IMG/VR virus record: IMGVR_UViG_3300006864_000001
Span: 1-58,659 of that record
Origin: a virus
DNA: 58,659 nt
Direction: 5' to 3' (one strand)
Shown here: in pieces, positions 6,109-47,219 of the stretch
How the letters are laid out: every line of letters begins with the position of its first letter
Numbering within the stretch: the first letter of the stretch is position 1
The notes under the pieces: model-generated
What the model was told of the DNA's origin: nothing
Database searches by the model: none
What the model saw: only the letters and a program-made list of their open reading frames with translations
Position numbers and translations under genes: made by a program

Positions 6109-6426
6109 CTATAATTCCGGAATTACGGCACTGCATTCGCAAACGCCTAGCGTTCCGAAGAAATGCTTCTGGACATCTCCCATCTTCGGATCGTAATGAC
6201 ATCGTCCACAGAATTTCCACTGCTCGTGCATGCCGTTCCCGACGTTATGCGGAGCACTCCACAACCAGTGTTTGTCGTGCGGGCAACTATCTTGATCGAC
6301 GTTATTTGGCTTTGGGACGTTACCGCTAGGCTTGCGCGGTTTGTCTTTAACAAAGTCGTTAACCATCGGACATTCACCAGGTCTATGGGTGGTCCCGCAT
6401 CGTTCGCAGTATGATGCTCTAGCCAT
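6109..6426 (-). CDS. Zinc-ribbon-like Cys-rich protein
   Basis: 105-aa ORF with CERCG...GECP and CGRCH...CEC pairs. Confidence 0.6.
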   Translation of the reverse strand: MARASYCERCGTTHRPGECPMVNDFVKDKPRKPSGNVPKPNNVDQDSCPHDKHWLWSAPHNVGNGMHEQWKFCGRCHYDPKMGDVQKHFFGTLGVCECSAVIPEL

Positions 6427-6433
6427 GATCAGG

Positions 6434-6724
6434 TTAGAACAGTTTGTCGTTGCTGGAAAATACGTCTGATTTATAGATCTTCTTCTTGCGCATAAAGCGC
6501 TTCTTGTCTGTGACTAGGTAGTAGTGCTTACCGGCATCGGTAGAAAATGCCCTGGAGTCGCGAGAGTTCTGCCAGATGCCCTCGCCGTTCTTGTCGCCCC
6601 AAACCTCAGGCGAATGATAGATCCACTCTTTCGGCTCATCTGTGAGCGGCGTAAGCGCGCCGTATCTGAGAAGCTGCTCGATAACCGGGATCGCGACTGA
6701 CGCTGATCCTCCAGAATGACCCAT
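6434..6724 (-). CDS. Hypothetical protein; possibly the 3' part of a gene starting at 6819 and joined by a -1 frameshift
   Basis: 96-aa ORF (MGHSGGSASVAIPVIEQLLRYG...) without an RBS. ORF 6514..6819 has a strong RBS (GGGGGTAATGATG) and a helical N-terminus, but turns Arg/Ser-rich exactly where this frame opens. Confidence 0.55.
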   Translation of the reverse strand: MGHSGGSASVAIPVIEQLLRYGALTPLTDEPKEWIYHSPEVWGDKNGEGIWQNSRDSRAFSTDAGKHYYLVTDKKRFMRKKKIYKSDVFSSNDKLF

Positions 6725-6829
6725 TCTTCGAAAAGCCTTAATGACTCGAAGATATCCGTCAATCGTCTCCGGGTCTTCTCGAGTTCGATTCTGGCGTGTA
6801 CTACGAGATTGCTCATCATTACCCCCTAA

Positions 6830-7633
6830 TTAGAACGGAGTATCGCCGCGAGTGATCGCCATCTGCTCGGACGCCTGATGAATCATGACTGGCTCAGGTT
6901 CTGTGAACATGGCGGATATCGCGCTGTCCGGCACGTCCATGTACTTCCTCTCGAGCTCGTCTTCGCGAATGGTTACGTAGATCGATTTGAGGTAGGCCTT
7001 CACGCCTGTCTTGCCACTGACCTCCCACTGGTGCGGTCGTATGATCATGTCGACGTTTTCGATCTCGGCCCAGTCGAGAATTGGTAGCATGCTCTCGTCA
7101 AGGGACGTCTTGCCCTTGGTGGTGATCATCACAACCCGTGGCGGCTGGCCGGCCCCGTAATGCACAGCCACTTCGAGTCGGGGCTGAGGCTTCGCGTCCT
7201 CTTCCTCAAGCCGTGGCTGAAGGTACTTAACGTTCCAGCCATCTTTGAGCATGGCGTCGGCGGTATCGTCGTCAAGGAGAACGTTGAAGTTGCGCTTGCC
7301 TTTGGCGTTGAATCGTCCTTCGGCGCCGGCGAAGTTGCGGAATATGATCCGAGCATCTTCGATGACTACTGGCTGCAGTCTGCTAACCATATTATTTCCT
7401 CTCAGCAAAGCGCGTAAACGCCAGCGTCCTTTTCCGGTCCCGCGACCGCATGATACGCAAGCATCGCCCACGATTTGATGTGCGTGCTTGCGTATTTCAA
7501 CCTGTGATTCTTGACATTTCGAGCAGGTCTGACCTTTGTGATCTTCTTCGTCAAACTTTCGTCCTTTGCCGAAGTATGACCAAGAGTCTTCGTCATCTAC
7601 CCAGTTATGACCGGTCAAACCGCAAGCCATCAT
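6830..7633 (-). CDS. ssDNA-binding protein candidate (T7 gp2.5 / DUF2815-like) with an N-terminal zinc ribbon
   Basis: CSKCQ..CVSCG at the N-terminus. ARIIFRNFAG...GKTGVKAYLKSIYV resembles the gp2.5-like OB fold, and the protein ends ...GDTPF (terminal aromatic residue as in gp2.5). ATGA coupling at 7633. An internal start at 7390 with GAGAGGAAA is also possible. Confidence 0.55.
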   Translation of the reverse strand: MMACGLTGHNWVDDEDSWSYFGKGRKFDEEDHKGQTCSKCQESQVEIRKHAHQIVGDACVSCGRGTGKGRWRLRALLRGNNMVSRLQPVVIEDARIIFRNFAGAEGRFNAKGKRNFNVLLDDDTADAMLKDGWNVKYLQPRLEEEDAKPQPRLEVAVHYGAGQPPRVVMITTKGKTSLDESMLPILDWAEIENVDMIIRPHQWEVSGKTGVKAYLKSIYVTIREDELERKYMDVPDSAISAMFTEPEPVMIHQASEQMAITRGDTPF

Positions 7634-7857
7634 CGCTCCTTAAGTCGGAAGGAGACACCGTCTTCCTGAATTCGTCTGATGATTAGCAGAGAGGTGCTGT
7701 GCATAAAACCGAGCCGACACAAACTGCCGTGCACCGAGTTATCAGCCAGCGCATTTTGATGCTCATCTTCTGCAGCCACTTCCGCATTTCGGGCCTTATA
7801 TTGCGCAAGGCCTTTTTCATTCCGCCGCTGGAGCTCTTGTGTCAGCCTCAGCGGCAT
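7630..7857 (-). CDS. Hypothetical protein
   Basis: 75-aa ORF; its stop overlaps the next ATG. Confidence 0.4.
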   Translation of the reverse strand: MPLRLTQELQRRNEKGLAQYKARNAEVAAEDEHQNALADNSVHGSLCRLGFMHSTSLLIIRRIQEDGVSFRLKER

Positions 7858-7875
7858 CGACCTATCACCATCTAG

Positions 7876-8034
7876 CTAAGGCCTTTCCCGAAATTCTATT
7901 CCGTCGTGTAGCATCTGATTAATCGCGGATCGGCAAGCGCTGTCGCTCAAGCCAGAACGCTTCAGGGATTCATACACCATGATGAGCGCGTTCTTGTCTT
8001 GGTCGACAGCGCTTGCCGACAGTTCCACTTTCAT
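7876..8034 (-). CDS. Small hypothetical protein (52 aa)
   Basis: Read by eye: MKVELSASAVDQDKNALIMVYESLKRSGLSD...; starts 2 nt after the upstream stop. Confidence 0.35.
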   Translation of the reverse strand: MKVELSASAVDQDKNALIMVYESLKRSGLSDSACRSAINQMLHDGIEFRERP

Positions 8035-8036
8035 CG

Positions 8037-8501
8037 TCAGACGAGCCCGAGCTCCGTCTTCATCTCAGCCTGCAGGGCAACGAACTTGCCCAGGAGCTGG
8101 CTGTACGAGATCGGGTTCACGTCCCGGATGATCCCGCTCTGCACCGACAGGAACGTCTCCTGCGCACGCGTGTAGGCCGGCACGTTGCCCGAAGACATGA
8201 AGGCCTGCTGCTCGGCGATGAATGCCCCCTGTGCACGTGCGTAAGCCGCGAGACTCACATCGACCTTGGTGTCTTCCGGCAGAACGTCGAAGCCACCGGC
8301 CGTCAGTCCGCGGTTAACGGCTTCCTTGAGGTGCTCCAGGTCATCGGCACCGTGGCGACGCGGCTTCGACAATGCCAAGCCGCTCAGACGAACACTGGGG
8401 TCATCGACGATTCGATCCCTGAGTCCTTCCTGTGCCGCAGGGTACGGGCCGCTGCCGTTGGTTGCGGCATGACGTGCAGCTTCTTCGATGGGCTGACCCA
8501 T
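8037..8501 (-). CDS. Hypothetical protein downstream of the receptor-binding protein genes
   Basis: 154-aa ORF with the same GC-rich composition as the fibre genes. Confidence 0.6.
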   Translation of the reverse strand: MGQPIEEAARHAATNGSGPYPAAQEGLRDRIVDDPSVRLSGLALSKPRRHGADDLEHLKEAVNRGLTAGGFDVLPEDTKVDVSLAAYARAQGAFIAEQQAFMSSGNVPAYTRAQETFLSVQSGIIRDVNPISYSQLLGKFVALQAEMKTELGLV

Positions 8502-8545
8502 GATCTTTCTCCCTCTAATTGTTCTTGGATTGGTAAGACTGTTGG

Positions 8546-10498
8546 TTAGCTGACGGTGACGGACATCCCGGCAAGAGAACCGGAGAAAGTGGGAACGAAC
8601 ACGTCACCCGGAACAAGCTTGAACCGGTAAAACACGCAACTTGCCGGGATCAACTGCGTGACACCATTGATCGTGAGCGCCGACAGCGTTCCGCCAGATA
8701 TCGCGAGTGTGACCTCGGCCTCACCGCCGTAAAGGTTGGTCCAGGTACCACCGGAAGCCGGCGGAGTGTGAACAGAAGACACCGGACCGCGGATACGCAG
8801 ACGGTCGTAGACTCGAACACCAGCGCCACCTGTGACCGGAACATTTCCGTAACCGTTGTTGGTGGTGCTGTCGTAGTTTCCGCCAGCGGTGATCGACCCT
8901 TCCATCAAGTTTCCAGGATCGTGAAGAACATCGGTGACACTCTCGTAGTCGATGCCAGAAATATCGCCCTTCACGACATTACCGCCAACGAATCCGGTGA
9001 CGCCAGACGGCATTGGCGAAACCGAGTAGCTGCAGTTCTCGGTCTTGATCTTGCTAAGGTCGAAGGAGTGCGCCATCGCCGTTCCGGAATATGGCCGAAT
9101 GGCGACGAAACAGTTGACCGCCGTTCCTTCAACACATGTCGCGTGCTCAGAAGGCATTGTTGCGTAAGGCAAGCCTTCTACAGACCATCGACCCATCTCT
9201 GCGATGGCGTTGTTGTTCGTATCCGGCATGCGACAACCACAAGCGGTCCTTGTGAGACTGCCGTAGTTCCCGAGCACCGGCCAAGCCGTTCCCGCAGGCA
9301 CCGTCGCCGCAGCCAGGTAACCCCAGTTCAGCATGGAGATCTCAGCCATGCCGAGCCAGTCGAAGCCCGTGAAACCGCAGTCCCTAGGCGCCATGATACC
9401 CACACCGTCAACACGAGTGTGCATGTTGCTGAACAGCGATGTGCCGCCACCGTATCCTGCGTAAGGACCACCGAAGACGCTGGGAGGACCGTAGGTGGAA
9501 TCGATGGTGCCGCCGCCAATTAGCACGACGATACCGCTACCATCCTCCTGCGGGTCTGTCTGCAGCCAGTGCGGAAGACTCGAAGCGTCGGAGTTCGTGA
9601 CGATAACGTTACGCCACTTGCGACTTGTCACCCCACGAGGAGCCATCGGGAACATCGCGTTGCCGGCAGTGCTTCCCCCAAGGACCGGAACGTCCGCAGC
9701 ACCGTAACCGTTCCCAAACAGGCAAAGCGCAGCTTCACGCCTTGAACCCGCCATGAATGTCCAGCTATCAGCTATCGCCGCTTTGATTGCCGGACTGGTG
9801 TTGGTACCGAACATGCAGCCGTGATTAGAGACGGTCGTACTGGCGTTGGCTGAGAGCACTGCTGTTGAATGGTCGGTTACGGAGACAATTGTGTGACCGT
9901 AGTAGTCACCGCCGCTTGGGCCGGCGCCGAAGATATAGACGAACTTGCCTCCCTCAATCGCTGTTGTGGTCAGTGGCTGAGTGGACGCGAATGACAAGAT
10001 GTTGCTACCAGCCGTGATCGACGCGTCACTGACGATAATCACATCGCCTTCGCCGTTGGGGTAATCCTCAGGCGCGAACTTGAAGTCCGATCGAAGAACG
10101 GCCGGCATGTTGAACTTCGTGACCGCACCACCTCCGCCACCAACACCGGCTTGCGGGGATGCCACAGCAAGATCCGACAGATTCTGATCGGGGCCATCCG
10201 TCGAAAGCAAGTTGAACGACCACGGCTGCGGGTTGCCGGGGCAATCATCGTAGTAGACGCGGTAGGACCAGCCCGGAGTCGCGTCATCGTTTTGTGGTCC
10301 GAGCAGGTCGTTCGGATATAGATTGACCACCGGCTTGCTGGTGCGATCGAACCAGACTGTCGCTTCAGTCATTTCGAGCAGCATGTGATTGACGGTATCA
10401 CTGACACGTTGCGATGGCACAAGCCGAATTCGGCCGGTCTTGAACTGGTTGCCGAATATATCGGCACTGTCAATTGTGACGGCGACCCTGTTTACCAT
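8546..10498 (-). CDS. Receptor-binding protein 1 (tailspike-like, Gly/Ser/Thr-rich C-terminal body; possible depolymerase)
   Basis: 650 aa. The N-terminal ~115 aa are paralogous to 11097..12278 (IDSADI..GR[IV]R[LI]VPS..LLEM..PNDL[LI]GPQ..PGW.Y..YYD[DE]CPG.P.PWSF). Confidence 0.7.
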   Translation of the reverse strand: MVNRVAVTIDSADIFGNQFKTGRIRLVPSQRVSDTVNHMLLEMTEATVWFDRTSKPVVNLYPNDLLGPQNDDATPGWSYRVYYDDCPGNPQPWSFNLLSTDGPDQNLSDLAVASPQAGVGGGGGAVTKFNMPAVLRSDFKFAPEDYPNGEGDVIIVSDASITAGSNILSFASTQPLTTTAIEGGKFVYIFGAGPSGGDYYGHTIVSVTDHSTAVLSANASTTVSNHGCMFGTNTSPAIKAAIADSWTFMAGSRREAALCLFGNGYGAADVPVLGGSTAGNAMFPMAPRGVTSRKWRNVIVTNSDASSLPHWLQTDPQEDGSGIVVLIGGGTIDSTYGPPSVFGGPYAGYGGGTSLFSNMHTRVDGVGIMAPRDCGFTGFDWLGMAEISMLNWGYLAAATVPAGTAWPVLGNYGSLTRTACGCRMPDTNNNAIAEMGRWSVEGLPYATMPSEHATCVEGTAVNCFVAIRPYSGTAMAHSFDLSKIKTENCSYSVSPMPSGVTGFVGGNVVKGDISGIDYESVTDVLHDPGNLMEGSITAGGNYDSTTNNGYGNVPVTGGAGVRVYDRLRIRGPVSSVHTPPASGGTWTNLYGGEAEVTLAISGGTLSALTINGVTQLIPASCVFYRFKLVPGDVFVPTFSGSLAGMSVTVS

Positions 10499-10514
10499 GT
10501 GTTCGTACCCTTCG

Positions 10515-11096
10515 TCAGACGATTGATGACATTAGCAGACCGGAGCTTATCGGAGTCGCGATAAGCTGTACTTCCGGGTCAAGCCAGTAGTTGCCGGCAT
10601 TGAATGAATCGACCGGACATCCTGGACTCGTACTGGGCAAGAAAGTGCATTGACCACCGTCTCCTGTGACACTAGCGTTGTTCGGTGCCGTAATCGGGCC
10701 ATTTGTGATGCCCGCAGAACCGTCGCCTGTGTCCCAGTAATGAGACGTTGCTGAATACCAAACCGTCGAAACGGGCTGATGAATCACAGCTTTGTAGTTG
10801 GTAGCTGCTGACAGAGTCGGCTTTGACGCAAACTCTGCACGAACTGAACCTGATCCTGCGGCTCCAGACCAAGTTGCTGTTTCGGTATGAACGAGCGTTG
10901 AATCTGAAGCCGTATAGAGGGCTATGTCTGAGGGAAGATCCGTTGCGCCAGATCCAGAATAGAACCAGATCGCATTCAGCTGACACGGATTGCTGACGCT
11001 GAATTCCACCGCAAAACTGTACGGTGAAGTGTCGCTGTTCTGAAGAGTTGGCAGCGCGACGAGCGGTTCGGGGAATAGAGTGTAGACGGTGGTCAT
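10515..11096 (-). CDS. DUF4082-like domain protein
   Basis: 193 aa. YSFAVEFSV..LNAIWFYSG..TATWSGAAGSG..ATNYKAVIH..GNYWLDPEV resembles the DUF4082 pattern. Confidence 0.6.
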   Translation of the reverse strand: MTTVYTLFPEPLVALPTLQNSDTSPYSFAVEFSVSNPCQLNAIWFYSGSGATDLPSDIALYTASDSTLVHTETATWSGAAGSGSVRAEFASKPTLSAATNYKAVIHQPVSTVWYSATSHYWDTGDGSAGITNGPITAPNNASVTGDGGQCTFLPSTSPGCPVDSFNAGNYWLDPEVQLIATPISSGLLMSSIV

Positions 11097-12278
11097 CTAG
11101 AAGCCCAGCGCAGGGCCGCGGTAAATCCATCCGCCAGCGCCACCATTTGCGTCGGCGTTATAGGCGAAGCCGACTTCGTCCACCTTGCCCGTTATAGATG
11201 TCCAGGCAGGCGGACCGGCCGTACCGAACTTGAATATAGCATTGAACAGCGGTGTGTATGCTCCGCCGTAAATGATCCTGAGAACGAAAACGTCGCCATC
11301 GACCGGATTTGACGGGGCGGCTAGCGTATGTGATGCGCCGCCGAGTGGCCAACGGTAAACGTTGCCCAAAGACGCGTCAAGCGCTACCGATGATCCGTCG
11401 GTGAGTGTCCGAACCTTTGGCGAGACACGATCGGGAAATGCGGTGTCGCCAGCCAAATTTGACGCAGTTGCTGCGTTTCCTGTGCCGACTGCATTCGTGG
11501 CGAATATCTCCGCGGTTGTCAGTGCGGTGGCTATCGCCGAAGCAGCGGCACTTGCCGCAGCAGTGGTAGCCGTAGTAACTGCGGCGCTAGCTGCATTAGC
11601 TGCGTATGTTTCCGCCGTAGTAATGGCGTTAGTCACCTGTGTTGGCGTTGCATAGTCAGTCCCGGCGGTTGCCGCTGAGACTGCCGTACCGTCACTCTTC
11701 AGGATTCCTGCGGCCGTCACTTCGAGTGTCACTGTCGGTGTCGTACTCGCACTAGCTACAGTTCCGGCAAAGCCGTTCGCACTGGCAATCGACATTCCGG
11801 TAACAGTGCCTGATCCACTGCCGGATTCATTACCCCAAACGGAGTTCTGAGATCCGTCGCCAATCGCCTTGGGGACCTGGTTAGCTGTCGGAATCCCTGC
11901 CGGCCGCGGCATAACCATCGTTCCCGGCTGAACCACCGGAGTCGCAGCGAGCGATCTCAATCGTTGTGGCGTGTTGTTCGTTGATAGCACATAGAACGAC
12001 CAAGGTCTGGGAGTACCTGGGCACTCATCGTAGTAGATGGTGTAGTACCATCCGGGAAGCGTGTCTCCCTGAGGCCCGATCAGGTCGTTTGGGAACAGAT
12101 CGACCTGCGGAGTTCCGATCTTGTCGAAACGCACTTCCGCGCCAGCCATTTCCAGCAACCCGCTATCTGCCGGATCCGGGATTCGCGTCGAGGGGACAAT
12201 GCGGACACGGCCGTAACGAAACGGCTTGTTCGTGATATCCGCACTGTCGAGGATCAGCGTTACCTTGGGTGTGGTCAC
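11097..12278 (-). CDS. Receptor-binding protein 2 (tail fibre)
   Basis: 393 aa. Shares the N-terminal anchor with 8546..10498 and has an Ala/Thr-rich fibrous segment (TAETYAANAASAAVTTATTAAASAAASA). Confidence 0.7.
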   Translation of the reverse strand: MTTPKVTLILDSADITNKPFRYGRVRIVPSTRIPDPADSGLLEMAGAEVRFDKIGTPQVDLFPNDLIGPQGDTLPGWYYTIYYDECPGTPRPWSFYVLSTNNTPQRLRSLAATPVVQPGTMVMPRPAGIPTANQVPKAIGDGSQNSVWGNESGSGSGTVTGMSIASANGFAGTVASASTTPTVTLEVTAAGILKSDGTAVSAATAGTDYATPTQVTNAITTAETYAANAASAAVTTATTAAASAAASAIATALTTAEIFATNAVGTGNAATASNLAGDTAFPDRVSPKVRTLTDGSSVALDASLGNVYRWPLGGASHTLAAPSNPVDGDVFVLRIIYGGAYTPLFNAIFKFGTAGPPAWTSITGKVDEVGFAYNADANGGAGGWIYRGPALGF

Positions 12279-12410
12279 GTGTTAACGTGCCTTTCTTAGT
12301 AATTCTTGTGGAACCGGATCTTCCCCTCAGAATCTACCGGTATTTCTGGCCTTACGGCGAGACTGTATGCGCCGTGATAACTTGTTCCACGCATAAGCGC
12401 TACTGCTTCT

Positions 12411-12632
12411 TCATTCGATGGATCGGAACGTCGATTCGATTTTCTGTTTGAAAATCTTCGCCGTTCCGATTACTTTGCGCGATCCACTAATATAAGTCGT
12501 TAGTGGAACTTCTATCGGCTCGTCGGACTCGCCAGCAACGGAATGCCAGAAATTGTTGCCTTCTGCAATTTCCTCACGAAGAACATCGAGACTAACTTCT
12601 TCTGGTGTAGGTAGTGGAACCTCGTTAGTCAT
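12411..12632 (-). CDS. Hypothetical protein
   Basis: 73-aa acidic ORF. Confidence 0.5.
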   Translation of the reverse strand: MTNEVPLPTPEEVSLDVLREEIAEGNNFWHSVAGESDEPIEVPLTTYISGSRKVIGTAKIFKQKIESTFRSIE

Positions 12633-12647
12633 TTCACTCCTTAACTA

Positions 12648-12688
12648 GAGCTCGGGGACATGACTCAAGCGGCCATGTCCCCGAGCTC
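12648..12688 (-). terminator. Strong stem-loop closing the GT2 module
   Basis: 15-bp perfect stem gagctcggggacatg / catgtccccgagctc with an 11-nt loop, about 30 nt after the stop at 12720; no U-tract. Confidence 0.45.
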
Positions 12689-12719
12689 AAAACCGACAGC
12701 GTGTTATTCCCGCGGGCTT

Positions 12720-13229
12720 CTAGTACTGAGAAGGCGTCTTCCCGTCAAGACCGGTTGGCTGCCCGTTCGGTCCGAGGAACCAAGACCAAGGGCGCGCATC
12801 CACCCGATAGGTCCACGCGTAGTCTGTGTTCGGCTTCGCTGCCGCCGGAACGATGATGTCCCAGCCGCTCCAGTCCACCGTGGCGAACCACTCAGGCGGC
12901 GGAGGCACGTCTTCCGGGGTGAGCTGTACGAACGGCTGCACCTTGTACGGCGTGGAGAACGTGACGTGGATGAGGCTGCCGGGCTCCGGATGCGAGCCAG
13001 TGTGGATGTGGATCTGGCCGATGGCGTCGTTGCCGTTGATCGAAGCCGTTCCGCCGCCGGTGCCGTTCATGGGCACGGCCTTGTCATTCAGCATCTGATA
13101 AACTCGTTGCTCGAAGGTGTCCTGAAAAGGTATCACAGACGTCCTGCTTTCGTGAATGTTGGTTCCGGGAAGAAACGCAACCGCGAGTGAGATAAGACAC
13201 AAGGTCGCGAGAATTACCAGCCTTCGCAC
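12720..13229 (-). CDS. Secreted protein of the GT2 module
   Basis: 169 aa, GTG start. Signal-peptide-like RRLVILATLCLISLAVAF. The start abuts the stop of the upstream mini-gene (TAAGTG). Confidence 0.65.
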   Translation of the reverse strand: MRRLVILATLCLISLAVAFLPGTNIHESRTSVIPFQDTFEQRVYQMLNDKAVPMNGTGGGTASINGNDAIGQIHIHTGSHPEPGSLIHVTFSTPYKVQPFVQLTPEDVPPPPEWFATVDWSGWDIIVPAAAKPNTDYAWTYRVDARPWSWFLGPNGQPTGLDGKTPSQY

Positions 13230-13385
13230 TTAGGACCGGCCGCGCCGCAACCTCTTTGCGGCCATGCCGGCAGCAGCGAGGGCAGCGAATCCCATGGCTA
13301 CCAAACCGGCCACCGTCCAATCTGAAAAAGTGGCTATGGTACCGAATGCTCCGAGTCCGCCGGCGATGTAATTGGGTGAGTACAC
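13230..13385 (-). CDS. Small membrane protein (51 aa) of the GT2 module
   Basis: Read by eye: (V)YSPNYIAGGLGAFGTIATFSDWTVAGLVAMGFAALAAAGMAAKRLRRGRS. GTG lies 3 nt after the GT2 stop. A hydrophobic helix is followed by a basic tail. Confidence 0.4.
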   Translation of the reverse strand: MYSPNYIAGGLGAFGTIATFSDWTVAGLVAMGFAALAAAGMAAKRLRRGRS

Positions 13386-13388
13386 GAG

Positions 13389-15059
13389 TTAATCCGTTTC
13401 TTGAAAGATATGGCCGCCGTCAGAATCATCCGATGGCTTGTCTCCAGCATTCATGACCGACAAATAGATGCCGAAGAATGCTGGAGTGATGATGAGAACC
13501 ACTGCGAAGACGCTCCCAGAAGCGGCGTCCACAAGTGCGGCCAGCACCACACTAGCTATGAGTTTGACTTTGTTCTGACGCAAAGCGCTTGCGAAGCTGA
13601 CCTTTCCCGCGGTCTTTGGCGTCACGTGGAACACACTTCCGCCAAATGTCGTCTTGAGCGACGCGAAGAGGCTGGCGAAATATACGGAACCGAACAGCGC
13701 CATCGAATGCAGAAGATAAGACACCAGCTTGCGTTTCGGCACGTGCCGCCACGTCAGGATGTCATTGAGCATTGGCGCAATCAGGAACGTCACTGTAGGA
13801 ATCAGCATCCACAACGGGAACTTGTTACTGAAATGCACCTCCGGGAATATGATGGCGTTGACGATAACGTACAAACTGAATACACCTGTCAACGGAAGGC
13901 TGAACGTGAAGAGGACGATGTCCAGCTTCTCGTACCATCTGAGTTGCTTGGAGAACAGAATCCGACCGGCATAAGTCCGGATGAATTCCATGTTGCCCTC
14001 GGTCCACTTCTTGTGGCGCTTCTCGAAGGCGAAGTAATCGACCGGGAATTCTTCACCGCAGAGAACGTCCTCCGCAAACTCCGTTCGGTAACCACCGCGC
14101 AGAGCATCGATGGCGAACCCGATGTCCTCGGCCACGATCTCTGGGAAACCACGAGCCGTCAGATATGCATCACGACTGACCATAGCACCGTGGCCTAGCA
14201 AAGACAGGAATCCGGCATGCGCCTTGACCTTCTGATATACAGGCCAGTGCGAATTCACTCCCGGAGCGAACATCTTCATGAATGATGTCCGATTACGTGT
14301 AGCAATGTGGTTTGCCTGGACGATACCGACACTTGGATCCTGGAAGTAGTCGAGGCAACGATCGATGAAGTTCGGCGGCAGCACCTCATCGGAGTCGACG
14401 ATGACGAAGTGATCCAGTCGTTGCCCAGCAGGGGACTGGAGGAAGTTATTCAAGTTTCCAGCCTTGAACCCCTTTGGCCGATTCGTTCGACGAATAACCG
14501 GGATTTTGTACATCCAAGCGAACCGATCAACACGTGCCTGGAACTCCGCCTTCGAGCTATCATCCAGGGCATAAACCTCGAAGTTTGGGTAGTTCTGCCT
14601 GATAGACAATCGAAGCGATTCTTCGCTAATGTCATTGCAGGTCACGTACAGCAGACCCACGAGCGGGCTACGACCTTGTGGACGTCGAGGAACCACTTGC
14701 TTCTTCCACGACGTGGCACGATAAGCGATTGGATATACTACGTCCTTCATACCATTGAGCCAGAAGTACATGATGAAGAGCGTCGTGGAAGAGACCGTAG
14801 CGCCGAGCAAGTCGCTTCGATTGAATGCTCCGCTGATGATTGGCGCCGCAGCCATCAGCATTGGGACGCATAGCAACGCCCACAAACCAACGATGCACCA
14901 GTACATGGTCGATGTTCGAGTTCGTACCCTAAACGCTTCCCGCGATATAGCGGGACGGGGCGTGAAGGTGGGACGCTGCAGTTCAGAAATGTTCCTGAGC
15001 TCTTTCAGCCCTTCGAATGGATCGTTTCTTACAGCCTCAAAAGGTCGGGTATTCGGCAC
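13389..15059 (-). CDS. Integral-membrane family-2 glycosyltransferase, processive synthase type (cellulose synthase / OpgH / PgaC-like)
   Basis: 556 aa. Motifs: YVTCNDI, LDDSS, RRTNRPKGFKAGNLNN, VDSDE, VAEDIGFA, RHKKWTEGN (plus QLRW downstream). TM helices flank the catalytic domain on both sides. Confidence 0.8.
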   Translation of the reverse strand: MPNTRPFEAVRNDPFEGLKELRNISELQRPTFTPRPAISREAFRVRTRTSTMYWCIVGLWALLCVPMLMAAAPIISGAFNRSDLLGATVSSTTLFIMYFWLNGMKDVVYPIAYRATSWKKQVVPRRPQGRSPLVGLLYVTCNDISEESLRLSIRQNYPNFEVYALDDSSKAEFQARVDRFAWMYKIPVIRRTNRPKGFKAGNLNNFLQSPAGQRLDHFVIVDSDEVLPPNFIDRCLDYFQDPSVGIVQANHIATRNRTSFMKMFAPGVNSHWPVYQKVKAHAGFLSLLGHGAMVSRDAYLTARGFPEIVAEDIGFAIDALRGGYRTEFAEDVLCGEEFPVDYFAFEKRHKKWTEGNMEFIRTYAGRILFSKQLRWYEKLDIVLFTFSLPLTGVFSLYVIVNAIIFPEVHFSNKFPLWMLIPTVTFLIAPMLNDILTWRHVPKRKLVSYLLHSMALFGSVYFASLFASLKTTFGGSVFHVTPKTAGKVSFASALRQNKVKLIASVVLAALVDAASGSVFAVVLIITPAFFGIYLSVMNAGDKPSDDSDGGHIFQETD

Positions 15060-15169
15060 TTCTATGATTCTCCGTTCTTATCGGATGATGAATGCCGAGA
15101 CTTAACGACATAGTCCGGAATATGATCTGGACAATATGACTGGATTATCGGAGGCGTAGCTCATGCGTG

Positions 15170-15442
15170 TTAAACCGGCGTGTGACAGTCTGTTTCTCCG
15201 CAGGCGATTGATGCGTTGGCCCACATAACAGTCTCACGAAGCTTAAGAATGGCCGTTGAACGATCACCGGTATCCGGACAGATTCGCAAGATCAGATCGG
15301 CGAAATGAGCTCCGACACTTCTGATAGCCTCATAACGCGCGGTCTGAGTTCCCTGAGGGGGATGATAAGAGAACTGATTTTTGATCATCGCTATATCGAA
15401 AGAATCAGGTTCAGATACTTGCAATTCTGGAATAATATTCAT
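15170..15442 (-). CDS. Small helical phage protein (Y.HPP...R...L.L.E..MWAN family)
   Basis: ORF 15170..15568. Start moved to MNIIPELQ (AGGGG RBS). Contains FSYHPPQGTQTARYEAIR...DRSTAILKLRETVMWANASIA. Confidence 0.55.
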   Translation of the reverse strand: MNIIPELQVSEPDSFDIAMIKNQFSYHPPQGTQTARYEAIRSVGAHFADLILRICPDTGDRSTAILKLRETVMWANASIACGETDCHTPV

Positions 15443-15453
15443 TTTGCCCCTAA

Positions 15454-15678
15454 CTATTTTCTTGATTTGACCCGGAATTTTTTCGGATTCAGTCCGGCCA
15501 TGATGATCTCGTCTAGTGTGGGCATTGCGCAGAACGCATCGCAATGATGATGAATTGTCCACGGACAATCACCACTTCCCAAACCGAGATGTTCACCGGC
15601 ATGCCCGAACTGTTGATTGCCAAACTCAAGCCGATCGATCCGGTATTTGCGGAAACCTCTTTCTAGTGGTTCGGTCAT
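15454..15678 (-). CDS. Hypothetical protein
   Basis: 74-aa ORF, His/Cys-containing (HHHCDAFC). Confidence 0.5.
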   Translation of the reverse strand: MTEPLERGFRKYRIDRLEFGNQQFGHAGEHLGLGSGDCPWTIHHHCDAFCAMPTLDEIIMAGLNPKKFRVKSRK

Positions 15679-15684
15679 GTTGCG

Positions 15685-15840
15685 TTAGTCATTCTCCTGG
15701 CACTTGCTAAGCCAGAGCTCGGCTTCTTCGATCTTGGTTAGCGCGAGCGAACGCTCGCGTCCAGGCTTGATCTCTTCCTCGATACCCTCTCGCAGCTGTG
15801 ACAGATTCGTCTTGAACCAGGGAATATAATCCTTAGCCAT
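15685..15840 (-). CDS. Small helical protein (51 aa)
   Basis: Read by eye: MAKDYIPWFKTNLSQLREGIEEEIKPGRERSLALTKIEEAELWLSKCQEND, with an AGGGG RBS. Confidence 0.4.
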   Translation of the reverse strand: MAKDYIPWFKTNLSQLREGIEEEIKPGRERSLALTKIEEAELWLSKCQEND

Positions 15841-15850
15841 TGTTTATCCC

Positions 15851-16132
15851 CTAGTCCGGAATGCAGACGTTGTCGAACTTCTTGTACGCGTCGAGATAAG
15901 ACTCGGCCTTGTCGCCGTTGTAGGTGACCTCGTAGTACATGCCATCCGGAAGAGTCGTACTGATGAGCGCCTTCCAGTTTTGCAGGGTCTTCGAGAACCA
16001 GACGACATAGACCTCGTCGAAGGCGAATGTGACATGCGTGTCGGTCTTCTCAAGGCGCTTCTTGATGTACTCGAAGGCGATCAGCTTCGCCTTGACGATG
16101 ATTCGTTGCTCGGGCATTTCTATTTCCGCCAT
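15851..16132 (-). CDS. Hypothetical protein, paralogue of 25365..25811
   Basis: ORF 15851..16201. Start at MAEIEMPEQ (AAGGAG RBS). VVWFSKTLQNWKALISTTLPDGMYYEVTYNGDK aligns with ILWFTRTSDDWQAICTSSVARGILWEVSFDGET. Confidence 0.6.
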   Translation of the reverse strand: MAEIEMPEQRIIVKAKLIAFEYIKKRLEKTDTHVTFAFDEVYVVWFSKTLQNWKALISTTLPDGMYYEVTYNGDKAESYLDAYKKFDNVCIPD

Positions 16133-16314
16133 CTTGGCGTCTCCTTTGCGTAGAGCATCACACGTTAGACAAGCACCTGGAACGTGAAGATAACTATCCA
16201 TCTTATTCCTAACTGGCTCGCTCGATCATCATCCGCTCACCGTTAACGTAAATAGTGAGCGGAACGTCTTTCATCGGCGTAGAGAGATTAGGCATTTCAT
16301 TCCTGAGTATTCAG

Positions 16315-16575
16315 CTACGGGCGCATGCCTTTCGCCATCGATTCCGCGCTCTCCACCTCAGCGACGCATTCCTCAAGATGAAGGTAGAACTGCGTAAGCT
16401 TCTGGCAAAGAACGCCGAGAGTTACGGAAGATATGTCGCCCGGAATGACTCGAAGACGCAAGACCCTGTCCGAAAGTTGATCGTTCATCGCCTGCGCTTG
16501 GGCGATTGCTTTTGAATTGGCTTCCAGGATCTTCCAGATTTCGTTCAGCGATTCGCGCTGCTTTGAGGTGGGCAT
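16315..16575 (-). CDS. Hypothetical protein
   Basis: 86-aa ORF. Confidence 0.5.
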   Translation of the reverse strand: MPTSKQRESLNEIWKILEANSKAIAQAQAMNDQLSDRVLRLRVIPGDISSVTLGVLCQKLTQFYLHLEECVAEVESAESMAKGMRP

Positions 16576-16638
16576 TCCTGTCCCTAACTGATTCTTATTT
16601 CGAATCTAATTTATTTTGTATCGTTTGATTTGAAGCGA

Positions 16639-16932
16639 TTAACTCTTATCCGGATATCTTCCGATCCATCGCCAGTCATGTGCGTCCACGAGAGTATGCT
16701 TTTCGCGAAGAACGTCAGGATTTCCGGTTTTCACCGGCTCCAGAGAGACTATCACGCGACCATCAGCCATGAATGTTGTATCTTTGACGCATCTCGAAGC
16801 CCAACCATCGGCCAGTTCGATCTGGTCACCTGGCCGCGGAACCGCCATCAGCCAGCGTCTGATACGAATACACCAGATACCCGCCTCAGCTGGAGGATTG
16901 GAGTAGATGTTGAGATCGATAATGACATACAT
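16639..16932 (-). CDS. Hypothetical protein
   Basis: ORF 16639..16959; start at MYVIIDLN (TAGGAG RBS, right after the replicase stop). Confidence 0.5.
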   Translation of the reverse strand: MYVIIDLNIYSNPPAEAGIWCIRIRRWLMAVPRPGDQIELADGWASRCVKDTTFMADGRVIVSLEPVKTGNPDVLREKHTLVDAHDWRWIGRYPDKS

Positions 16933-30530: not shown

Positions 30531-31349
30531 CTAGCTGGTTAGTTTCCACGTACCGCCGGAGCGAACGTATGGCACAGCTAGCTTCCACACCCCTCCCGTA
30601 CGGACGTATGGTACGACTTGTTTCCAGGTCCCGCCGCTTCTTATCCACGCGCCGCCAAACATCTGTATCGTGGCAGTTCCTGATGGATTAGAATATCCCC
30701 CGTTATCAGCGGCGTTGTTTTTAGCTAGGACCTCGAATGTGTAAACTCCTCCGGGGGTAAGATCAGTAAGATTTCGACTCAAGTTCAAGGCGAAACTACT
30801 GGAATATGTACCGGATGTATCTGGACCCTTGTAGATCCTAAGCTGATAGCCCGTAAGTAGGTTTCCCTCATTATTAGGAGACCCAGCCCACGATACAGTC
30901 AAGCTTGTCGGGAGTTCATTTGAGAAGGTGGGCAAACCGGGCGGCGCGGGACGTCTCGGAATTCGAATAAGCGTTAGAACTACGCTTACCGTTTGCTCGC
31001 TTCCGAAATATGCCGTTCCAGTCGAGCCGTAATGCACGTCGAACGTTACGACTTTGTTTCCGTCAAGCCCATGGCTAACGGTAAACGTGTGCTCGATGAA
31101 GGTTAGGGAATCGCCGGGGGCTAGGGCAAATCCGAAATGCGGCCCGGTGAAACTCGCTTCTCCGCCAATGTCGCAAAGGATGTTTTTACTGGAGGAAGTT
31201 GATCCACCACTTCCAACATTCCCGATACGACCCGTAACGGTGACTTGAGAGGTGTTGTCTGGCCAGTTTGAAGACTCCTGGGTGACGATTATCTCAAGAT
31301 TACCACCACTGCTGACAGATATCGTGTGCGAATTCTGGGCTAGTGACAT
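30531..31349 (-). CDS. Minor tail protein with a fibronectin type III domain
   Basis: 272 aa. PPGLPTF..LTVSWAG...GYQLRIY...GGVYTFEVLAKN is an FN3 pattern. The C-terminus carries GGTWKQVVPYVRTGGVWKLAVPYVRSGGTWK repeats. Confidence 0.65.
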   Translation of the reverse strand: MSLAQNSHTISVSSGGNLEIIVTQESSNWPDNTSQVTVTGRIGNVGSGGSTSSSKNILCDIGGEASFTGPHFGFALAPGDSLTFIEHTFTVSHGLDGNKVVTFDVHYGSTGTAYFGSEQTVSVVLTLIRIPRRPAPPGLPTFSNELPTSLTVSWAGSPNNEGNLLTGYQLRIYKGPDTSGTYSSSFALNLSRNLTDLTPGGVYTFEVLAKNNAADNGGYSNPSGTATIQMFGGAWIRSGGTWKQVVPYVRTGGVWKLAVPYVRSGGTWKLTS

Positions 31350-31352
31350 CGG

Positions 31353-31637
31353 CTATAGAATCTTGAAGTAAACGGAGCCGTTGACATTGTTTGCGACACC
31401 GTCAGAAGGCGCCGCCGTCCCGGAATATATGCCTAGCCCCTGTCTTCCTTGGGCCGGCGTTGTGCCTCCGGTGCCACCACGGGTAACTGGCCAGGTAGTG
31501 AGAATCAGCGCTTTAACCTGAGCGACGAAGTCTCTTGTGCGATTTATCTCCTGGCCGCCAAGGCGTACCAGGGCATCATCCCCAGTGTTGGGGACCAGCG
31601 GGTATCCTGCCGCTGCAGCATCATCTCCTACGGCCAC
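31353..31637 (-). CDS. Minor tail protein (small)
   Basis: 94 aa, GTG start with a GAAAGGAA RBS; assigned by position in the tail module. Confidence 0.5.
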   Translation of the reverse strand: MAVGDDAAAAGYPLVPNTGDDALVRLGGQEINRTRDFVAQVKALILTTWPVTRGGTGGTTPAQGRQGLGIYSGTAAPSDGVANNVNGSVYFKIL

Positions 31638-31652
31638 GAATATGATTCCTTT

Positions 31653-32822
31653 CTAGATGGTTCCCCAATACTCTGACGGATCGACAGTATTCCAAACAGC
31701 TCCGGCATCCCAAGCCAGCCAAGTGCCTGGAGTGATGGTCTGGACCAGCGTCAGTGTCGGGTAAGACTTCTCGCCAGTGTTATCCGAGGAGAATATTTGT
31801 TCAGTCACGATCATCTGATTGCCGAGACCGTTTTCGGTTCGTTCTTCGACAATATCCCCAAGCACGTAGTCTACTCCGTATACATACGGGAGATTTTGCG
31901 GCATGGTTCCGTCGAATTGATAAACCGGACGATATGACGCTAGAGCAACAAGTCCTTCTTGCTGCAAAGCTGCGGTCAAAGCCGTCCCAGCAACCGTTGT
32001 GTTGTTCGAATTGACTAGCAAAATACGACGATCTGCGCCATTTGCAGTCTGATCAGCGGTTGGTGAATACACAACGGCTGTTCCATTTTGAGCGAACACA
32101 TACGCAACGGTTTTGACGTTGGCCATTGACGTGAGGGTCGTCACGTCCTCTAGCGTTTCGAGATTCGGATCAAATATTACCGGAGGAAGAAGCGTTTGGG
32201 TGGAGGTGCGATCGCTTCCGGTATATACCTCGAAGTAAACTAGACCTTTTTCTCCATCCTTGACTAGACGAAACCCGAGCGCGTACATGTCGCAAATCTT
32301 CTTGACCGAATTGTACACGGTGTCGGGCGTAAAAGCTACCGAGATGATGTCTGTCGGTTCCGGTATTGAGCCCGAACCAATAAGTGTTCCGAAAGCGTAA
32401 TACGGCATCACGTCGAGTTGATTAAGTGCCGCAGTAACGCAAACAACGTTAAATATCTGTCTTGCGATGTTTGCGGGGTTTCCGGTAATGACCCAGTACG
32501 GCGCTGTGATCGTGGCCGTGAGCGATGGCATGGCAACGCGATCTTCGAGCAATGCCTCAAACGATCTACCCACAATCGTGAGAGTTTTGGTTCCATCTTG
32601 CGCGATACTGTCAGTGACAGTTTCGATAGTCGCTACACGATACGAATTATTTCTCGTGACTCGAATGCCTGGGGTGAACAATCGCCGATTATTAGAATTC
32701 GACGGCATCACTATCTGAAAATCACCCCAGGCTGAATAACGTTCTGTCCAAATAATCGAAATGTAATTCTGGATCAGAAAATCGCGCCTAAGTAGATCGT
32801 CAAGAACATAGTATTCCATCAA
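31653..32822 (-). CDS. Minor tail protein, siphovirus Gp37-like
   Basis: 389 aa. N-terminal YYVLDDLLRRDFLIQNYISIIWTERYSAWGDFQIV fits the remembered Gp37-like pattern. Lies downstream of Dit. Confidence 0.6.
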   Translation of the reverse strand: MMEYYVLDDLLRRDFLIQNYISIIWTERYSAWGDFQIVMPSNSNNRRLFTPGIRVTRNNSYRVATIETVTDSIAQDGTKTLTIVGRSFEALLEDRVAMPSLTATITAPYWVITGNPANIARQIFNVVCVTAALNQLDVMPYYAFGTLIGSGSIPEPTDIISVAFTPDTVYNSVKKICDMYALGFRLVKDGEKGLVYFEVYTGSDRTSTQTLLPPVIFDPNLETLEDVTTLTSMANVKTVAYVFAQNGTAVVYSPTADQTANGADRRILLVNSNNTTVAGTALTAALQQEGLVALASYRPVYQFDGTMPQNLPYVYGVDYVLGDIVEERTENGLGNQMIVTEQIFSSDNTGEKSYPTLTLVQTITPGTWLAWDAGAVWNTVDPSEYWGTI

Positions 32823-33685
32823 ATCGCCCCGTATTTAGGCGTATAGGTTAGAGTGAACGGAAGCGGGCTTCCGTCGTAGAACGAAAATATGTTCGGAATT
32901 CCGACGTAGAATACTCGGAAATCATTGTCGCCCTTAGCAAGGCTTATCCAGGTTGACTTCGGATCCAAATATGAATGCATTGAGGTTACGACCCCAGCAC
33001 GATTAAGCGTTACCGATTTGGATCCGGGTATCGTAGAAACTGATAGAACATCGCCATTAACAAGAATGGGCAAGTTTGGAAATGACATGATCTGAACGGT
33101 TCCATCGGACTGAGTGCAGTAAATGCTGAAACTCGCGCCAACGGCGATCGTCGCATTCAGATTAAGATTAAACAGCACGCCGGCGTCTGACGATCCGGGA
33201 TAAGATATCGTCGTGACATTCGTATTGGGCACCGTGAGCGTACTAAGAACTGAAGACGTCGGTGCATAGAAATCTGGATCATAGCAAATGATCGAAATAT
33301 CTACTTCTGGATCAGCTGAGAAAAGTACGTTGTCAAAGCTTTCAACTTGACCGGACGTAATCGCGTAAAGGGTATCGTCCAAATATAGTCCAACTTGTAC
33401 GTTCGACTTCGGCATGAAGTAATCATACAGATCGGATCTTAGTGATTGGACGTCGTTCGTTACATAATCAGGCTCAAGGCCGATTTTAAGCAGAATGTTC
33501 CTAGTTGTGCGGGTGGCGTTTTGGGGCTGAGCCCCGTCTTCTTGCGCCATTGACGACGAAGTCAATGTTGCCTTAACGGGACTCAGCCCTTCCACATCAC
33601 GAACCACATAGCCAGCGGAAGCATCGAGAAGAGGAAGCTGTAGTGTTCCGTTTCGCTGATTCGTGATCTCGACCATTGTTAGCAT
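32819..33685 (-). CDS. Distal tail protein (Dit) candidate
   Basis: 288 aa, immediately after the tape measure gene and overlap-coupled to it. Confidence 0.6.
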   Translation of the reverse strand: MLTMVEITNQRNGTLQLPLLDASAGYVVRDVEGLSPVKATLTSSSMAQEDGAQPQNATRTTRNILLKIGLEPDYVTNDVQSLRSDLYDYFMPKSNVQVGLYLDDTLYAITSGQVESFDNVLFSADPEVDISIICYDPDFYAPTSSVLSTLTVPNTNVTTISYPGSSDAGVLFNLNLNATIAVGASFSIYCTQSDGTVQIMSFPNLPILVNGDVLSVSTIPGSKSVTLNRAGVVTSMHSYLDPKSTWISLAKGDNDFRVFYVGIPNIFSFYDGSPLPFTLTYTPKYGAI

Positions 33686-37905: not shown

Positions 37906-38297
37906 GAAGAGGTCACCTCCTTCCAAACGCTAGCTGCAATCTGGTCAAATATCGGCCGAATTGCTGGATTGATGTAATCTTTCCCCTGCACATATCCACC
38001 GGTGCCAGTTCCGTGCCCATACTGCAGCAATATGGCTACCGGCGTACTGCCATTGTCCAGATGCGTATTCGTCCACCTGATCGTACGAGATCGACCTGAG
38101 ATATCAATCTCATAACCCCACGAAGCCGCCGTGACACCAGTGTTTTCGGGTGTTGCCGCTGACAAAGCTTCAACGCCTTGTTGCGCATAGCCTTCAAGCG
38201 ATCGGTAAATGTCGCCTCTGGATATGTGATTCAGGAAATTGTCGGTGTTCTGAAAGGAACCTGTCGATTTTATCTGAAGCACACAGGCTCCTTTCAA
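37902..38297 (-). CDS. HK97 gp10-like tail/neck protein
   Basis: 131 aa. TGVTAASW...VAILLQYGHGTG...YINPAIRP resembles the gp10 family. Confidence 0.6.
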   Translation of the reverse strand: MKGACVLQIKSTGSFQNTDNFLNHISRGDIYRSLEGYAQQGVEALSAATPENTGVTAASWGYEIDISGRSRTIRWTNTHLDNGSTPVAILLQYGHGTGTGGYVQGKDYINPAIRPIFDQIAASVWKEVTSS

Positions 38298-46949: not shown

Positions 46950-47219
46950 CTACTTGGAGGGCTTGACGTTCGCTTCCAGCTCTGCGATCCTCGCTTCGAG
47001 CTTGGCGAAAGCCGCGTTGGCCGTGTCCTCTGACGAGATGTTGTCGGGATGTTCCGTCAGCGACGATTCGTAGCCGGTCAGGAGCAATGTCTCGCCGGTG
47101 TCGGAGGTCGGGCCGATGGGCGTGCCGTCCGGGTTGAAGAGAGCGATGCGTTCGGTCTTCTGGTGCTGCTTGAACTTCTCCGTGGGAAGAACGATCGCCT
47201 GCGTGATACCCTGGTTCAT
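46950..47219 (-). CDS. Hypothetical protein
   Basis: 89 aa; ATGA overlap with the terL stop. Confidence 0.55.
   Translation of the reverse strand: MNQGITQAIVLPTEKFKQHQKTERIALFNPDGTPIGPTSDTGETLLLTGYESSLTEHPDNISSEDTANAAFAKLEARIAELEANVKPSK

Follow-up and report, generated by a model that had tools for sequence, protein, structure and literature searches.

What would a tailed phage do with an apparently complete machine for making and exporting a polysaccharide? The question is raised by a three-gene cassette in a 58,659-nt stretch of viral DNA (IMG/VR record IMGVR_UViG_3300006864_000001, positions 1 to 58,659; hereafter the window), which encodes a 556-aa family-2 glycosyltransferase (GT2), the synthase, a 51-aa hydrophobic peptide, and a 169-aa partner protein. 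The genes of the window suggest a tailed phage with actinobacteria as the putative host group. The initial annotation had read the trio as a phage-borne glycan-synthase module that could remodel the host envelope. Our analysis leads us to favor, as the probable though not secure reading, a portable actinobacterial cassette for synthase-dependent polysaccharide that the phage carries as an accessory operon, and whose glucan would coat the infected cell and mask its receptors.

The three minus-strand open reading frames (ORFs) are consecutive in the window, span 2.3 kb, and all begin at GTG codons: the synthase at 13389..15059, the peptide at 13230..13385, and the partner at 12720..13229. These coordinates, as well as a 110-nt spacer that precedes the synthase gene (15060..15169, minus strand) and a 15-bp perfect hairpin, were all found again in the sequence as initially described. 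The TAA stop of the synthase is separated by 3 nt from the GTG of the peptide, and the peptide stop abuts the partner start (TAAGTG). A GGAG lies ~10 nt 5' of the synthase start codon, and a sigma-70-like match at the spacer (TTAACA-18-GATAAT, 15173..15144, 10/12 positions) is suggestive of a promoter. The hairpin (12648..12688, minus strand) consists of two 15-nt arms (12648-12662 and 12674-12688) that are 100% complementary around an 11-nt loop, and is located 31 nt 3' of the partner stop codon and 10 nt 5' of the ribosome-binding site of the next ORF. Its RNA fold reaches -43.8 kcal/mol (z = -5.35), with none of 200 shuffles folding equally well, which makes it a candidate for a terminator lacking a U-tract or for an RNA-stabilizing element. 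With a seed of 10 and a maximum arm distance of 20, a scan of the whole 58.7-kb genome found only three other perfect hairpins of >=12 bp and did not re-list this one. The next ORF (12411-12632, minus strand), which starts 16 nt past the hairpin, has a strong AAGGAG ribosome-binding site and encodes a 73-aa acidic protein with no family match.

Homology and purifying selection establish the three ORFs as real genes rather than chance reading frames. For all three, the proportion of nonsynonymous differences (pN) is well below that of synonymous differences (pS), and the ratio of the corresponding substitution rates (dN/dS) is ~0.1-0.33 where dS is unsaturated. Taken separately, the peptide gives 0.11-0.33 (0.30 at a dS of 0.79 between L086 and L087, two of the other carrier loci described below) and the partner 0.1-0.5. 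The public gene call for the contig omits the 51-aa ORF and begins the partner at V32 (138 aa); the longer form of the partner, with an N-terminal transmembrane (TM) helix, is backed by its homologues. A PHROG search gave no family for any of the three proteins, and no PADLOC model of known anti-phage defense is matched by the trio or by seven neighboring genes.

On its sequence and predicted structure, the 556-aa protein is a membrane-embedded processive-type GT2 synthase. It matches Pfam PF13632 (6e-23) in addition to PF13641, PF00535, and PF13506. The AlphaFold2 (AF2) model, which like the family alignment is based on 42 sequences (predicted local distance difference test, pLDDT, 87.7; predicted template-modeling score, pTM, 0.86), comprises two long N-terminal helices, a GT-A domain, interface helices, and a bundle of ~5-6 C-terminal TM helices. 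A single-sequence search of the PDB was weak and returned only chondroitin synthase and dolichol-phosphate mannose synthase (DPMS), whereas profile and fold searches went further. In Foldseek searches against the PDB, the model matches BcsA (9b8v_E, E 1e-17; 4p00_A, query template-modeling score, TMq, 0.56) and the cyclic β-1,2-glucan synthase Cgs (TMq 0.60), with further full-length matches to chlorovirus and Xenopus hyaluronan synthases, plant CesA, and chitin synthases. The top 50 matches are nearly all channel-forming polymer synthases aligned over ~500-620 columns, the exception being the mannosyltransferase PcManGT (~400 columns), and membrane synthases rather than soluble GT2s thus head the list, in agreement with the polytopic processive-type enzyme initially proposed.

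The catalytic residues support the same assignment. The motifs quoted in the initial annotation (LDDSS, the KAGN box, VDSDE, AEDIGF, and RHKKW) are all present, most of them invariant in the 42 sequences, and no catalytic Asp is missing: D166, D167, K199-AGNLN204, D222xD224-E225, E311-D312, and R348-H349..W352-T-x-G-N356 are invariant throughout. In a profile alignment to Escherichia coli BcsA, the KAGN, DxD, and TED-like motifs are in register (LDDG, DCD, and TED in BcsA), and the catalytic Asp positions also align to D143, D198, D200, and AED of Gtf, a bacterial β-glucan synthase. The sequence F477-H-V-T-P-K482, which the initial annotation overlooked, conforms to the FxVTxK gating-loop motif, with F, V, T, P, and K invariant; in BcsA, this loop coordinates UDP (motif definitions from PMC10374906 and PMC8892547). 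At the QxxRW position, the initially noted RHKKW does occupy the equivalent site (R348-H-K-K-W352, on helix 342-368), with an invariant Trp, a conservative Arg-to-Lys change, and Gln replaced by Arg. The separate downstream QLRW is not conserved, with W375 alone invariant, and does not represent a displaced QxxRW. No PilZ domain is detected by Pfam, and the protein ends ~20 residues past its last TM helix.

Among characterized enzymes, the closest relatives are not those first proposed. Searching plasmids with tblastn, the best matches are the GT2 genes of Pediococcus damnosus pF8801, of P. claussenii, and of beer-spoilage plasmids of Levilactobacillus brevis; pF8801 contains only rep, mob, and the GT2. 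By BLASTP, residues 94-546 of the synthase align to residues 65-541 of the pF8801 Gtf/Dps protein with 31% identity and 50% positives (E 6e-71). Gtf/Dps, with two TM segments at the N terminus and four at the C terminus, produces a 2-substituted (1,3)-β-D-glucan, also on heterologous expression in Lactococcus lactis, and is homologous to pneumococcal Tts and to Propionibacterium freudenreichii Gtf (PMC6131198). In Streptococcus pneumoniae, Tts alone directs the type 37 capsule (PMC2195575), and a single Gtf or Tts gene directs formation of a β-glucan capsule or exopolysaccharide (EPS) (PMC6131198, PMC2195575). Judged by sequence, the phage synthase is a distant member of this Gtf/Dps/Tts β-glucan synthase branch and not a BcsA or OpgH enzyme. 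The processive-type membrane GT2 of the initial annotation stands, while its assignment to a BcsA/OpgH type does not: the phage system has neither a PilZ domain nor a BcsB, and the OpgH and PgaC models score far below their cut-offs.

The two small proteins show conserved features of their own. In the peptide, an MY..Y start and a GW.VAG motif are conserved; a single strong TM segment covers residues ~24-44, and the C-terminal tail is basic, so that the positive-inside rule would place it in the cytoplasm. Its orthologues, 37-49% identical, occupy the same position in loci L086, L087, L089, L091, L094, and L095, with hidden Markov model (HMM) E-values of 1e-20 to 1e-29 in most loci and 4.7e-07 in L095; the L089 copy is a 52-aa ORF missed by gene calling. 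The peptide has no match in Pfam, NCBIfam, PHROG, or PADLOC, and by analogy to other synthases we regard it as a candidate small subunit of the enzyme. A role as a sortase substrate, an idea that came from its hydrophobic segment, its basic tail, and a sortase gene at locus L005, was set aside, the peptide having neither an LPXTG/LAXTG motif nor a signal peptide. At L005 (7177-9761), in an uncultured Actinomycetes metagenome-assembled genome (MAG), the gene order is peptide, sortase (PF04203, 6e-22), GT2, with no partner.

The partner was initially described as a secreted signal-peptide protein. Its N-terminal TM helix is indeed conserved in orthologues, but the AxA cleavage site is not, and for this reason the helix is more probably a signal anchor than a signal peptide that is removed; a protein anchored in the membrane by its N terminus is a better description than a clearly secreted one. 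In the AF2 model (pLDDT 85), an eight-stranded β-sandwich (~residues 50-144) lies outside the membrane, and the C-terminal tail is conserved (ARPWS..L..G.P....G.P.QY). Orthologues with 47-55% identity are encoded directly 3' of the GT2 or the peptide in at least ten loci. A word-index search found only four relatives and missed known ones; we therefore used an exhaustive profile search and local HMMs. In the exhaustive search, 850 proteins of 100-2900 aa were found to carry, at their very C terminus, a ~95-aa domain homologous to the β-sandwich. Many of these carry an N-terminal TM segment and β-helical repeats, and at least one has a tail-fiber-like N terminus. About half of the top 149 carriers have an N-terminal TM segment, and three of ten scanned contain weak, sub-threshold bactofilin-like repeats. 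The domain, which in the partner has no Pfam or NCBIfam match, is a candidate for a new surface or adhesin domain family. Weak structural look-alikes of the partner include pyocin and tail-fiber tips, an H-type lectin, and carbohydrate-binding modules (CBMs), from which a glycan-binding role is a plausible guess. No fold match was significant, and the partner was not assigned as a lectin or CBM.

Are the three genes inherited together? We surveyed gene order using local HMM searches over all fetched loci, counting L087 and L088 as one. The order GT2, peptide, partner occurs in seven distinct loci (the window, L086, L087/L088, L089, L091, L094, and L095), and GT2 followed by the partner without the peptide in L002, L003, L092, and L097. 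Neither small gene is present in the remaining 80 cellular loci from the wider GT2 family, and in no locus examined was the peptide or the partner found away from this GT2 clade. The gene order and the overlapping or abutting junctions are kept across divergent loci, bearing out the initial view of the trio as a unit.

The carriers are of two kinds. The phage-like ones, besides the window, are L003 (50.8 kb; ParB, SNF2, PD-(D/E)XK, and AAA_24 genes), a 60-kb JGI contig, L097 (62 kb; WhiB, ERF, RNR, and SLT/LysM), L086 (135 kb; Prim-Pol, helicase, and a transposase beside the cassette), and L087/L088 (133 and 122 kb). The fetched flanks of L003, L086, and L087 have no gene in common with the window, from which it follows that the cassette entered unrelated genomes independently. 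In L086, the cassette has the transposase gene (6401-7384; phrog_4285, 7e-57) directly upstream, which suggests one route of mobility. The cassette is also not phage-specific, as full copies are found in cellular actinobacterial loci: L089 (250 kb) has housekeeping flanks (enolase, DivIC, Ppx, UDG), and in L094 the trio is surrounded by CapD-like, GT4, epimerase, and C-methyltransferase genes of a polysaccharide cluster. In a neighbor-joining tree, the GT2s that belong to cassettes group in a single clade, sister to L005 and nested in an actinobacterial/Saccharibacteria family, and the phage-like and cellular copies interleave. These observations place the origin of the cassette in envelope loci of actinobacterial cells.

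Homologues of the synthase at 40-74% identity number in the hundreds across the wider GT2 family. When one genome per species was scanned, the family was found in Actinoplanes and other Micromonosporaceae, in very many Saccharibacteria MAGs, and in Clostridia, with a few cases each in Enterococcus, Streptococcus, Gardnerella, Chloroflexia, and Dormibacteria. The gene stands alone in most of these genomes; in Saccharibacteria, ABC/FtsX genes are nearby. Its frequency in Saccharibacteria (TM7) MAGs, at 42-53% identity and in many loci (L006, L013, L016-L056), is striking, and may reflect gene exchange between these epibionts and their actinobacterial hosts. In Actinoplanes and relatives (L007-L012, L014, L015, L017, L021, L024, L039), a conserved, divergently oriented gene ~390 bp upstream of the GT2 on the opposite strand encodes a lipoprotein-like product of ~350 aa with no Pfam match, which could serve these bacteria as a partner in glycan processing.

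How might such a cassette work? In the mechanism that we propose, the GT-A domain of the synthase, on the cytoplasmic side, would accept a UDP-sugar (UDP-glucose being the likeliest), and the enzyme would elongate a β-glycan and thread the chain through its own TM channel, as Gtf/Dps/Tts and BcsA do. We infer a UDP-glucose-derived β-glucan because Gtf/Tts, CrdS, and BcsA, to which the synthase is homologous, are all users of UDP-glucose. The peptide would pack against the TM bundle of the synthase in the manner of IcaD/PgaD with IcaA/PgaC, and the β-sandwich of the partner could sit over the channel exit, where it would act like BcsB in binding the nascent polymer, guiding it, or retaining it. 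Driven by its own signals, expression of the cassette in the course of infection would lay a new glucan layer on the infected cell. This layer would mask wall receptors, such that superinfecting phages are excluded and/or progeny are not wasted on infected cells and debris. The most specific form of this proposal, a mobile capsule machine composed of the synthase, a 51-aa micro-subunit, and a glycan-handling β-sandwich that cloaks actinobacterial cells in glucan during lytic infection, is one that we put forward tentatively, as possible rather than probable.

Several observations weigh against the mechanism. Promoter-like matches in the region number 2, against 2.8 expected from shuffles, and are not above chance; the hairpin has no U-tract, and a simple terminator scan gave no call there. 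The QxxRW site reads RHKKW (Q to R and R to K; RSSKF in Gtf), so that acceptor handling may differ from that in BcsA. The fold of the partner has no significant PDB match (best E 0.03). L086 and L087 are only phage-like, having replication and HNH genes but no structural genes in their fetched flanks, and the neighbor-joining tree, with Gtf as the outgroup, carries no support values. Finally, Gtf and Tts work alone, leaving the two extra proteins unexplained, and the peptide is absent from four loci.

These last points bear on whether the three genes form one machine at all. The synthase could act alone, like Tts, with the partner serving as an independent surface factor, e.g., a receptor decoy or mask derived from a fiber-tip domain, and the peptide as an unrelated membrane protein, e.g., one linked to sorting. 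Since Gtf and Tts need no partner, the partner domain is common to the C-terminal tips of surface and tail-fiber-like proteins, the peptide is missing at four loci, and L005 combines peptide, sortase, and GT2 without the partner, this explanation deserves consideration. However, the strict gene order with abutting or overlapping junctions across divergent loci, and the finding that neither small gene occurs outside this GT2 clade among the loci examined, make it unlikely in our judgment.

The favored reading, a cassette acting on the infected cell, also depends on the kind of phage that carries it. The window is probably a lytic, siphovirus-type, Gordonvirus-like genome. We located the large terminase (47216-48961), portal (44602-45918), protease/capsid (42517-44583), major tail (40970-41833), tape measure (33685-37926), Dit (32819-33685), minor tail proteins (30531-32822), and an amidase (50640-51524). 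Compared with the Arthrobacter phage MediumFry, a Gordonvirus, the replication genes are 57% (primase/polymerase), 57% (helicase), and 46% (single-stranded DNA-binding protein, SSB) identical at the aa level. The distance from primase/polymerase to SSB is 9.3 kb in the window and 1.4 kb in MediumFry, with ~8 kb of the difference forming an accessory block (7700..16900, minus strand) that contains the cassette, two ORFs with an Acb2/Tad1 hairpin domain, and ORFs of 73, 393, 193 (DUF4082), and 650 aa. The GC content is 0.57-0.61 at 8-13.4 kb compared with a genome mean of 0.52. The initially noted moron-like layout is upheld by the absence of the cassette between the same backbone genes in MediumFry, by its cellular homologues, by the raised GC content, and by the hairpin, the promoter being only suggestive.

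The neighbors within the block are of varied character. Directly upstream of the cassette, two ORFs (15170-15568 and 15685-15840, both on the minus strand) carry the Acb2/Tad1 hairpin domain (PF24729, 1e-13 and weak, respectively); they have no sequence match in the PDB, and on their domain match are candidate sponges for cyclic-nucleotide immune signals. On the other side (8546-12278, minus strand), the 393- and 650-aa proteins have a common N-terminal domain of ~110 aa and flank the DUF4082 protein. Searches of PHROGs, of 50,697 phage genomes, and of the PDB gave no match to the 393-, 193-, or 650-aa protein, the last of which has only four relatives among 5.8 billion proteins. The idea that the cassette sits next to receptor-binding protein genes found no support, as these neighbors match no PHROG or deposited phage and lie ~18 kb from the tail module. 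The company that the cassette keeps, anti-defense-like genes in the window and early or replication genes in other carriers, would suit a role in infection, as opposed to one in building the virion. Elsewhere, an 892-aa protein (53184-55862, minus strand) matches phrog_4291, annotated as an RNA-dependent RNA polymerase (E = 0), and may be an RNA polymerase of the phage's own with a bearing on transcription of the cassette.

A different benefit would follow if the cassette were a lysogenic-conversion or host-benefit trait, by which a lysogen or a host in the carrier state would gain a capsule or a biofilm matrix, with no action in the lytic cycle. Classic phage glycan-modifying cassettes such as Gtr and TarP are prophage-borne, and this precedent, together with the promoter-like site and hairpin that the cassette has of its own, lends the idea some weight, as does the fact that glucans of the Gtf/Tts type protect cells and promote adhesion (PMC6131198). 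However, no integrase-sized or repressor-type gene was recognized in the window, which also has no unannotated ORF of integrase size, the backbone is Gordonvirus-like, and in other contigs the cassette lies among replication or early-type genes. We accordingly hold this explanation to be doubtful.

A further alternative concerns the product. The GT2 could be a lipid glycosyltransferase that makes a glycosyl-diacylglycerol, a ceramide-type glucoside, or a lipid-linked primer, with the phage remodeling membrane lipids instead of secreting a polymer. The protein does match Pfam Glyco_transf_21, the ceramide glucosyltransferase family (1.3e-07), matches HpnI and DPM synthase weakly, and has a degenerate QxxRW (R-H-x-K-W); GT21 enzymes, too, use a (Q/R)xxRW variant. 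What makes this alternative quite improbable is that the strongest homology is full-length and to the polymer-making Gtf/Dps, that the FxVTxK gating loop and the C-terminal TM bundle are both present, that polymer synthases fill nearly all of the top 50 fold matches (PcManGT excepted), and that one cellular copy, L094, lies within a polysaccharide cluster. An assembly error, or contaminating cellular DNA fused to a phage contig, to which the metagenomic source and the locally higher GC content at 12.6-13.2 kb might point, is very improbable, given same-strand genes on both flanks in a coherent phage genome, a neighboring 650-aa gene that is identical on 58.7-kb contigs from JGI and ENA, and the same cassette on several other phage-like contigs.

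How rare is the polymer-synthesizing cassette among phages? In 50,697 deposited phage genomes, we found only four distant GT2 matches (25% identity), annotated as "putative cellulose synthase" or "pgaC" in Synechococcus phage S-CBWM1 and Acinetobacter phage MD-2021a. The absence of close relatives from this collection agrees with the initial impression that such a synthase operon is unrecognized in siphoviruses. Scanning IMG/VR, the partner profile returned no locus and the GT2 profile one GT2-only contig, while the partner profile returned five loci from 241 million JGI metagenome records. In BFVD, a library of viral structures, full-length fold matches are to giant-virus synthases only; phage proteins match in the GT-A domain only, at TMq < 0.3, and GtrB ranks 50th. 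A literature search for phage-borne Tts, Gtf, or cellulose-type synthases found nothing relevant, which, given incomplete coverage, is weak evidence of absence.

The enzyme class, phage alteration of host glycans (Gtr, TarP), and giant-virus synthesis of hyaluronan or chitin are all already known. What is new is the predicted full polymerase-exporter cassette in tailed phages, its three-component organization, and its mobility between cells and unrelated phages. If our reading is correct, no synthase-dependent exopolysaccharide pathway would have been shown in a tailed phage before, and the trio would define a new type of three-component Gram-positive polysaccharide synthase complex with both accessory proteins in unannotated families. 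A polymerase-exporter in a tailed phage would rewrite the host surface differently and more strongly than glycan decoration, and could build a new layer of wall or capsule from scratch, needing a common nucleotide sugar but none of the polysaccharide genes of the host. It would bear on superinfection exclusion, on the loss of progeny to debris, and on the spread of capsule types among actinobacteria. Our analysis also flags two unannotated families, the ~50-aa peptide and the β-sandwich domain of 850 proteins, as likely components of polysaccharide secretion.

Placed among known systems, the cassette resembles GtrABC, TarP, and the chlorovirus synthases in that a virus-encoded glycosyltransferase would alter the surface glycans of the infected cell, and it shares with Gtr the form of a three-gene accessory cassette. 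Gtr and TarP, however, decorate existing polymers by means of small or soluble GT2s, whereas a complete polymerase-exporter is predicted here. BcsA is the best structural match and has in common with the synthase the D, DxD, TED-like, FxVTxK, and KAGN motifs; in concept, the membrane-anchored extracytoplasmic partner encoded beside the synthase also parallels BcsB. The identity to BcsA is only 15-16%, however, there is no PilZ or cyclic di-GMP module, and the 169-aa partner is N-terminally anchored with no detectable similarity to BcsB; a BcsC is not expected, because the host is of the Gram-positive type. For the peptide, the best functional analogy is offered by the PNAG synthases IcaA-IcaD and PgaC-PgaD, which likewise combine a GT2 membrane synthase with a small membrane protein, although IcaD is twice as large as the peptide and not detectably homologous to it, and no deacetylase is encoded here.

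Among the NCBIfam models tried as candidates for the synthase, PgaC/IcaA (TIGR03937) reached 35.3 bits against a cut-off of 422.3, OpgH/MdoH gave partial matches of 22-44 bits against cut-offs of 328-884 (the best, 43.8 against 550, among the top NCBIfam matches), and the NodC, HpnI, and EpsE equivalogs were all far below their cut-offs. OpgH, the osmoregulated periplasmic glucan synthase, is a larger, proteobacterial enzyme, in which the motif at the QxxRW position likewise begins with R and continues with W-x-x-G-N. The closest likeness is to Gtf/Dps/Tts, whose carriers include P. freudenreichii, S. pneumoniae type 37, and ropy lactic acid bacteria (Pediococcus with pF8801/pPP2, Levilactobacillus brevis, and Oenococcus) and whose products are β-(1,3)/(1,2)-glucans. 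The lengths are similar (556 and 567 aa), TM helices lie on both sides of the GT2 domain, the motifs KAGNLNN, DSDE, LGHG, AEDx, and VTPK are common to the phage enzyme and Gtf/Dps, and the genes are mobile, in the case of Gtf/Dps/Tts as plasmid-borne genes or insertions outside the cap locus. The phage clade nevertheless stands separate at 31% identity and keeps the Trp at the QxxRW site (RHKKW versus RSSKF), and whereas a single gene suffices for Gtf and Tts, the synthase described here is carried by phages and accompanied by two conserved accessory genes.

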